From contig OZ024740.1 in the NCBI GenBank assembly GCA_964016885.1, forward strand, positions 340,132,001 to 340,196,000: DNA of 64,000 nt. The letters are read 5' to 3'. The translations under genes were made by a program, and so were the position numbers. Position 1 is the first letter of the stretch, and each line of letters opens with the position of its first letter. The DNA is from Eledone cirrhosa (lineage: Eukaryota). Shown here in pieces: positions 14,692 through 15,554 of this stretch. A model generated the notes under the pieces. The model ran no database searches and was not told the origin of the DNA. It was given only the letters and a program-made list of their open reading frames with translations.

Positions 14692-15554
14692 AACTTTGAA
14701 TAACTTTGAAATGTTTTGGCCAGTATTGGCCCAGGTCATGTCTAACTTAATAGCACCACCTGGCGAAGTCTTTCAATTCACGATTTGGGCACCATGGCCC
14801 ATTCGAGAAGAGAATTACTGTCTGCGGAGACATATCCGGGTGTGGGTGGTTTGTCCGGGACCACCTGGAGGAATTTGTCCAAAGACTTCTTGAATTTTGT
14901 GTGGTCAGTTTCTGTTTTGACGTGTCCTGGTGCGATGTCGAAGAGAGCAGGGCCGACTGAGGTGAAATAATTGTGCCGTATTGTTGTTATGAGTTGCGAT
15001 TTAGATTTCTGAATGGGACGGACAGCACGGGGCCCAAGCCCTGGGTGTATCTTGAAGGCGACGCCAACACCACCTGGGCAGTGATGATGGAACATCCTCC
15101 ACATCACGCAGATAACACAACGCTCACGGCGACGTTGGAGCGAGCAAAGTCTCAGGCCCTCTAATCGACCCCAGTAGTCAAGGTCTGACATGCCATCTAT
15201 CTTTTTCGTGATTGCCCTTTGAGGAGCTTCAAGTTTCATGATACTTTGTTTCGTGTGGGGAGACCACAGTGGACAACAGTATTCAAGGTGTGGTCGGGCG
15301 AAAGTAGAGAAGAGAAGGATAATGGTGCGGGAATCTCTCGACTGGAAGGTTCTGAGGATCCAGGAACACATTCTGCGGGCCATGTCAACTTTGCTGCTTA
15401 TATGCGTGGTCCAGCTTATGTTGCTGTCCACGGTTACTCCCAAGTCTCTGATGTTGTTAGATGCCACGAGAGTTTCCCCGGAGGGAAGGGAGTACGGGAG
15501 TTTCAGAGCATCCTCTTTTCCAAAGTGGATCAGTTCGAATTTGTCTTCGTTCAG
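14692..15554 (-). mobile_element. CR1-clade LINE 3' fragment, 5'-truncated, apparently A>G hypermutated
   Basis: [23 protein letters not shown] motifs in an open frame to 14,778; tail (TTCAAAGTTA)x2; TA on both sides. Confidence 0.88.

Follow-up and report, generated by a model that had tools for sequence, protein, structure and literature searches.

A LINE copy in a 64,000-nucleotide stretch of the Eledone cirrhosa genome (the window) raises the question of whether RNA edits can enter inherited DNA. Edits are normally temporary in RNA and would become inheritable if an edited RNA were copied back. A sequence-only reading of the window had claimed that this copy stems from a hyper-edited transcript that was retrotransposed, with deviations from its relatives that are almost exclusively A>G on the sense strand, in a frame without stops, and depleted after a 5' G.

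The A>G cluster in the window copy

The features of the copy and its surroundings are listed in Table 1. In alignments to copies from the same genome, the sister copies extend 5' past position 15556, where the window copy stops. Both of its flanks are (TA)n, masking any target-site duplication.

Table 1. Coordinates of the LINE copy, its parts and its flanks in the window
Feature	Positions	Strand	Remarks
5'-truncated LINE copy, 3' 870 nt of a ~4.3 kb APE+RT non-LTR element	14690..15556	-	set in (TA)n tract; 96-97% identity to 39 other scored copies
A>G cluster	14822..15159	-	G at 25/108 A's of the element sense strand; 19 missense and 6 silent
Clean 5' part of the copy	15160..15556	-	0/116 A's altered
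C-terminal part of ORF2, open up to the natural stop	14778..15554	-	
3' UTR with predicted stem-loops	14694..14781	-	conserved in older subfamilies; free of A>G in 4/4 edited copies
3' tail (10-nt tandem repeat, two units; no poly-A)	14690..14709	-	
(TA)n tract 3' of the copy (target)	14470..14689	.	
(TA)n tract on the 5' side of the copy	15557..16570	.	

A 33-nt probe matched 2,612 copies of the family in the genome at no more than one mismatch. A search of the same genome returned 411 candidates, 40 of which were scored, and all of these were 94-100% identical to the window copy; the family is very young. A full-length relative encodes an ORF1 of 388 aa and an ORF2 of 1045 aa, the latter carrying the endonuclease and RT (PF14529, PF03372, PF00078). 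The highest-identity homologue of the ORF2 end came from Argonauta, with 65%. The short tandem-repeat tail, the 3' UTR stem-loop and the lack of an RNase H domain seen in this family are what we take to be features of the CR1 clade, and "CR1" is used here as a presumed name.

The window copy was compared over 857 positions with the majority letter at each column of the 29 best-matching copies elsewhere in the same genome, which are 96-97% identical to it, and A>G differences were read from the assembled contigs. Differences occurred at 28 positions. On the element sense strand, 25 of these are A>G, and the other three are a T>C, a C>G and a G>A. The T>C site is polymorphic in the family, and a larger sample of copies leaves 25 A>G out of 27. 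All 25 lie inside 15159-14822, with 0 of 116 A's altered on the 5' side and 0 of 35 on the 3' side. The 29 comparison copies carried 1-9 differences apiece, of mixed types. In the background of ordinary copies (139 alignments, outside the query ranges), A>G occurred at 46 of 51,828 A positions, against 26 of 41,205 for T>C, and the chance of at least 23 A>G in 259 A's at this background rate is about 2e-38. The one-sidedness claimed from the letters was therefore borne out against the 29 sister copies (25 of 28, the quoted frame being the minus strand), and the frame does run open to its natural stop. The G of "YWGR", which had been counted as an edit, is a letter encoded by the family.

Two other sources of the cluster were rejected. 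The sister copies carry A at the edited sites, so that the family does not already have G there, and a diverged subfamily is discounted by the absence of both selection and sisters. No daughters of the window copy were found in its own genome, its edits being specific to this one locus. At window positions 16387-16561, A>G seemed to be in excess, but this stretch is interrupted TA repeat. Within the window copy, A's preceded by A or T were edited at 19 of 55 positions and those preceded by C or G at 6 of 53 (p 0.006). The claimed depletion after G was not significant in this copy alone (1/13 vs 24/95, p 0.29) and emerged when the four events described below were pooled, with G the lowest of the four neighbours at 7%.

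Several side observations concern the surroundings and the family. The family prefers (TA)n tracts and is strongly clustered: the first 100 listed copies (C1) include 11 pairs at no more than 10 kb, where 0.5 would be expected, and 6 of these pairs are inverted. Three copies (L105, L136, L173) have 5' inversions, as expected from twin priming. In the TA tracts (window 15557-16570 and the tails of most loci), G interruptions occur on only one strand per tract; being self-complementary, (TA)n RNA might attract ADAR, but slippage accounts equally well for the one-strand G's. The window also holds a Penelope-like element at 11565-13892 (+), with a 775 aa frame matching RT and GIY-YIG, and fragments of a second LINE family at 16570-17880 and 32990-34600 (-), with RT and then a PHD finger and with symmetric changes. 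Words of the LINE family are present in sequencing runs of nine organisms. Four presumed-RNA runs yielded mainly diverged relatives with symmetric mismatches (19-27 A>G, 27-33 T>C), and are uninformative on editing.

Further edited copies and their frequency

The scan for similar copies that had been proposed with the sequence-only reading yielded three more independent events. Searching with the edited stretches returned a copy at C4:174.16 Mb with 79 of 81 differences being A>G, a copy at C3:317.43 Mb with 44 of 51, and a copy at C13:18.64 Mb that has a twin on contig C1011, with 43 of 51 and 44 of 53 respectively and 43 G's in common. Among 192 distinct young copies, a sample that the queries had enriched for edited ones, 187 carried 0-4 A>G and 5 carried 25-79, with T>C at no more than 4 throughout. 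The four copies are of different lengths, and their background variants and patches also differ, so that the events are independent. Edited sites were shared above chance in 3 of 6 pairs of events and not above chance in the other 3. As marks of TPRT, the window, C4 and C3 copies are 5'-truncated, each at a different point, and the tail is retained in 4/4 edited copies.

The C13 copy (L278) and its C1011 twin (L281:5460-9750) are full length. The 3' 1.6 kb of this copy has 44 of 461 A's altered; farther 5' the count is 1 of 1,023. In the C1011 version both ORF1 and ORF2 are open despite 29 missense A>G. The full-length copy carries about a dozen other private changes and is therefore not the newest insertion. 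Over 3,367 aligned columns, 8 substitutions and one 21-nt indel separate the flanks of the two versions, a haplotype-like difference that suggests two haplotypes; alternatively, C1011 may be one haplotype assembled twice. The C13 version has 10 one-base deletions over the compared stretch, several of them between edited sites. An inverted, unedited neighbour lies 7.5 kb away, and all A>G but one fall within the region that could pair with it.

The four A>G probes had 4, 11, 4 and 17 matches, all examined or matched to known places, and no fifth hyper-edited event was among them. Hyper-edited copies therefore number 5 assembled copies of ~2,600, or at least ~0.2%, a lower bound because the A>G probes cover four short segments. 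Two mirror probes for T>C (10 and 8 matches) returned 0 of 18 hyper-edited copies, and a third, dominated by an older subfamily, returned no T>C-dominated copy in the 30 examined of its 157 matches. The 4:0 strand count is suggestive (p 0.06) rather than a formal test, the A>G probes having been placed with the sites known. The sole antisense-type cluster, 3 T>C in 5 nt at L337:1341-2871, forms a C run and is more slippage-like than like hyper-editing. G>A numbered 0-1 per edited copy, without an APOBEC-type sense-strand G>A cluster.

When ordinary copies were examined for sparse editing, their A>G changes were not enriched at the edited sites (6/7,821 vs 12/13,261) and showed a weak 5' A/T bias (p 0.026). 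Four copies (L323, L325, L326, L327) share two A>G 4 bases apart, both at edited sites of the window copy, and are possibly a small sub-lineage of a lightly edited source. No edited daughters were seen for any hyper-edited copy, and with ~0.2% of copies concerned the effect on the genome is small.

Origin of the clusters

Taken together, the four events have 191 of 1,129 A's changed. The share of changed A's was 27% after T (36/134), 25% after A (99/399), 11% after C (41/369) and 7% after G (15/227), with a chi-square p of 1.7e-11. This order matches the 5' preference of U>A>C>G measured for ADAR1 and ADAR2 (PMC3113232), and metazoan editing is described with the same 5' neighbour pattern and a weaker 3' rule (PMC9989829). 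By the 3' rule G is favoured and U disfavoured. By 3' neighbour, the pooled values were 36/176 for G (p 0.19, not significant) and 36/272 for T (p 0.06). Adjacent edited doublets numbered 5, 25, 17 and 11 pairs in the four copies. Missense changes made up 141 of 192 A>G, compared with 855 of 1,126 possible, and are not depleted, which argues for one unselected burst. The host genome holds PF02137 (A_deamin) matches, the best being 95% identical to an Octopus ADAR2 protein; the species is an octopod with an ADAR2 gene.

A burst of copying errors at insertion, for which a shortage of dATP is one conceivable trigger, with the RT or second-strand polymerase misinserting G at a template T or C at a template A and no deaminase involved, would yield sense-strand A>G limited to the inserted copy, in independent events and free of selection. 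The many adjacent doublets and the weak 3'-G preference agree with this explanation, but the 5' order of T>=A>C>G is that published for ADAR, no other mismatch type is elevated, and the patches have sharp edges and long clean stretches within the same copy. The 3' end bears on it as well. There are 25 A's in the 83 nt that precede the tail, and across the four copies 0 of 100 A positions were changed there against ~19 expected. Errors made after priming need not avoid the 3' stem-loop, yet 4/4 copies do, and copying errors are very unlikely to be the source.

The 3' UTR of an unedited sister copy folds with a z of -3.46 against shuffles, and within older subfamilies the 3' region shows the better conservation (90-94% vs 82-84% identity). 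On the simplest reading, the stem-loop would be spared since the RT needs its structure, and insertion would have been restricted to RNAs whose 3' end was intact. The edited patch itself shows no fold (z 0.37), and a duplex would therefore require an antisense partner. Of the first 100 copies listed, 12 had an inverted copy within 10 kb, and at L007, L046, L102 and L160 two copies face each other tail to tail with a TA tract in between. Most copies are 5'-truncated, and partners would therefore span the 3' part. Near the window, C4 and C3 copies, no inverted family copy was present in the 64 kb window or within ~15 kb. The source locus was sought through the two non-A>G variants of the window copy, which together occur nowhere else; one variant alone did not lead to it in the 30 examined of 46 matches, mostly older subfamilies.

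This layout also bears on the idea that an unedited insertion already in place was overwritten by edited cDNA through gene conversion, or was deaminated within an RNA:DNA hybrid. The edits are patchy, and the inverted neighbour of the C13/C1011 copy at 7.5 kb covers all A>G but one, as such a process would have it. That arm is itself unedited, however, and inverted neighbours are ordinary (12/100 copies). The idea fits the C13 layout only, since the window, C4 and C3 copies are without a nearby inverted copy, and deamination in place would have no bias to the element sense strand. We give it slightly less credence than the already slight credence given to copying errors.

Least credible is an assembly artefact, with G's introduced by polishing with RNA reads or by consensus error: uncorrected one-base deletions do occur in the assembly, and the edited words reached a best share of 0.23 in public sequencing runs, about the same as unedited stretches give, but C13 and C1011 agree on 43 G's despite differing flanks, polishing reads would have repaired the 10 one-base deletions of C13, with TA repeats discounted, neither A>G nor T>C is in excess in the inverted neighbour or in the repeats adjoining the window copy, reads from ~2,600 near-identical unedited copies would presumably drag the consensus to A, and polishing would affect both element orientations, whereas T>C hyper-edited copies were 0 of 18.

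The clusters are very probably the product of LINE RNA that was hyper-edited by ADAR, likely while paired with antisense RNA, and reverse-transcribed into the germline. The observations on its side are the clusters, their strand, neighbour context and independence, the lack of selection, the spared 3' end, the abundant inverted neighbours and the ADAR gene. The claim that a hyper-edited copy was written into the genome is supported by the A's in the sister copies, the one-sided mismatches, the three further copies and the pooled ADAR neighbour pattern. In the likely course of events, the transcript of an active LINE copy would pair with an antisense copy, be hyper-edited to inosine by ADAR and be reverse-transcribed into a germline (TA)n target. 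The partner may have been an inverted or antisense copy, mostly 5'-truncated, and the location of the edits in the 3' 1.6 kb would follow from this; the RT of the element would read inosine as G, and the edited insertion would then be passed on through the germline.

A wider proposal is that germline ADAR in octopods acts as an APOBEC-like mutator of active LINEs, with edited RNAs routinely fixed across many families. It is put forward tentatively, and we would sooner doubt than adopt it. If true, full-length edited copies with both frames open and ~30 recoded ORF2 codons would be among its products, and in cephalopods RNA editing would feed straight into heritable sequence, a path that retrocopies of recoded mRNAs could also take.

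Comparison with known systems

The four independent copies make the write-back of ADAR edits testable by counting A>G against T>C clusters per LINE family. Each edited copy would preserve the editing of one RNA molecule in the germline or early embryo, and the stem-loop left unedited at the 3' end would map a requirement of the RT. A literature search, mainly of the main texts of non-subscription papers, turned up no genome in which ADAR-edited LINE copies are reported to be fixed. A 2016 review treats mutational suppression of retrotransposons by ADAR as undetermined, and that ADAR edits in retrotransposon RNA reach the genome has been assumed but left open (PMC4982230). Writing edits back to DNA has been called unproven (PMC5974252). 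The part of an Octopus repeat annotation that lists active CR1 families makes no mention of editing (PMC13282606).

At the RNA level, young repeats including LINEs are described as the main ADAR targets in metazoans and cephalopods (PMC9989829, PMC9068888), and squid repeats as heavily edited, with anti-transposon defence proposed (PMC9068888). Metazoan repeat editing follows the same 5' neighbour rule as the copies in this study; there, edited RNA is set against a genomic A, whereas here the G stands in the DNA. For human L1 RNA, the account in PMC5224506 is that no edits were seen and that restriction by ADAR1 was independent of editing. This counts against an ADAR origin of the clusters, the common point being that ADAR meets LINE RNA.

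ADAR-linked A-to-G hyper-editing is reviewed for the avian RAV-1 and ALV and for HTLV-2 and STLV-3 in culture (PMC8586724). In these retroviruses, as in the LINEs of this study, edited RNA passes through reverse transcription into DNA with clustered A>G. They are infectious retroviruses, whereas the present cases are host LINE copies in an assembled and apparently inherited genome.

A close likeness is to G>A editing by APOBEC, which is fixed in vertebrate LTR retrotransposons (PMC4866542, PMC2873906). An APOBEC screen restricted to LTR elements reported invertebrates to be without such editing and other mismatch types to be very rare (PMC4866542). Like the edited LINEs, the APOBEC-edited LTR copies carry a strand-biased cluster of one mismatch type, attributed to a host deaminase acting before insertion. 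They differ in that APOBEC produces G>A through C-to-U in the cDNA of LTR elements, whereas the present clusters would be A>G through the RNA of a non-LTR element. Retroelement copies scarred by a deaminase are therefore known; what is new here is that the scars point to an RNA editor, in a LINE and in an invertebrate.
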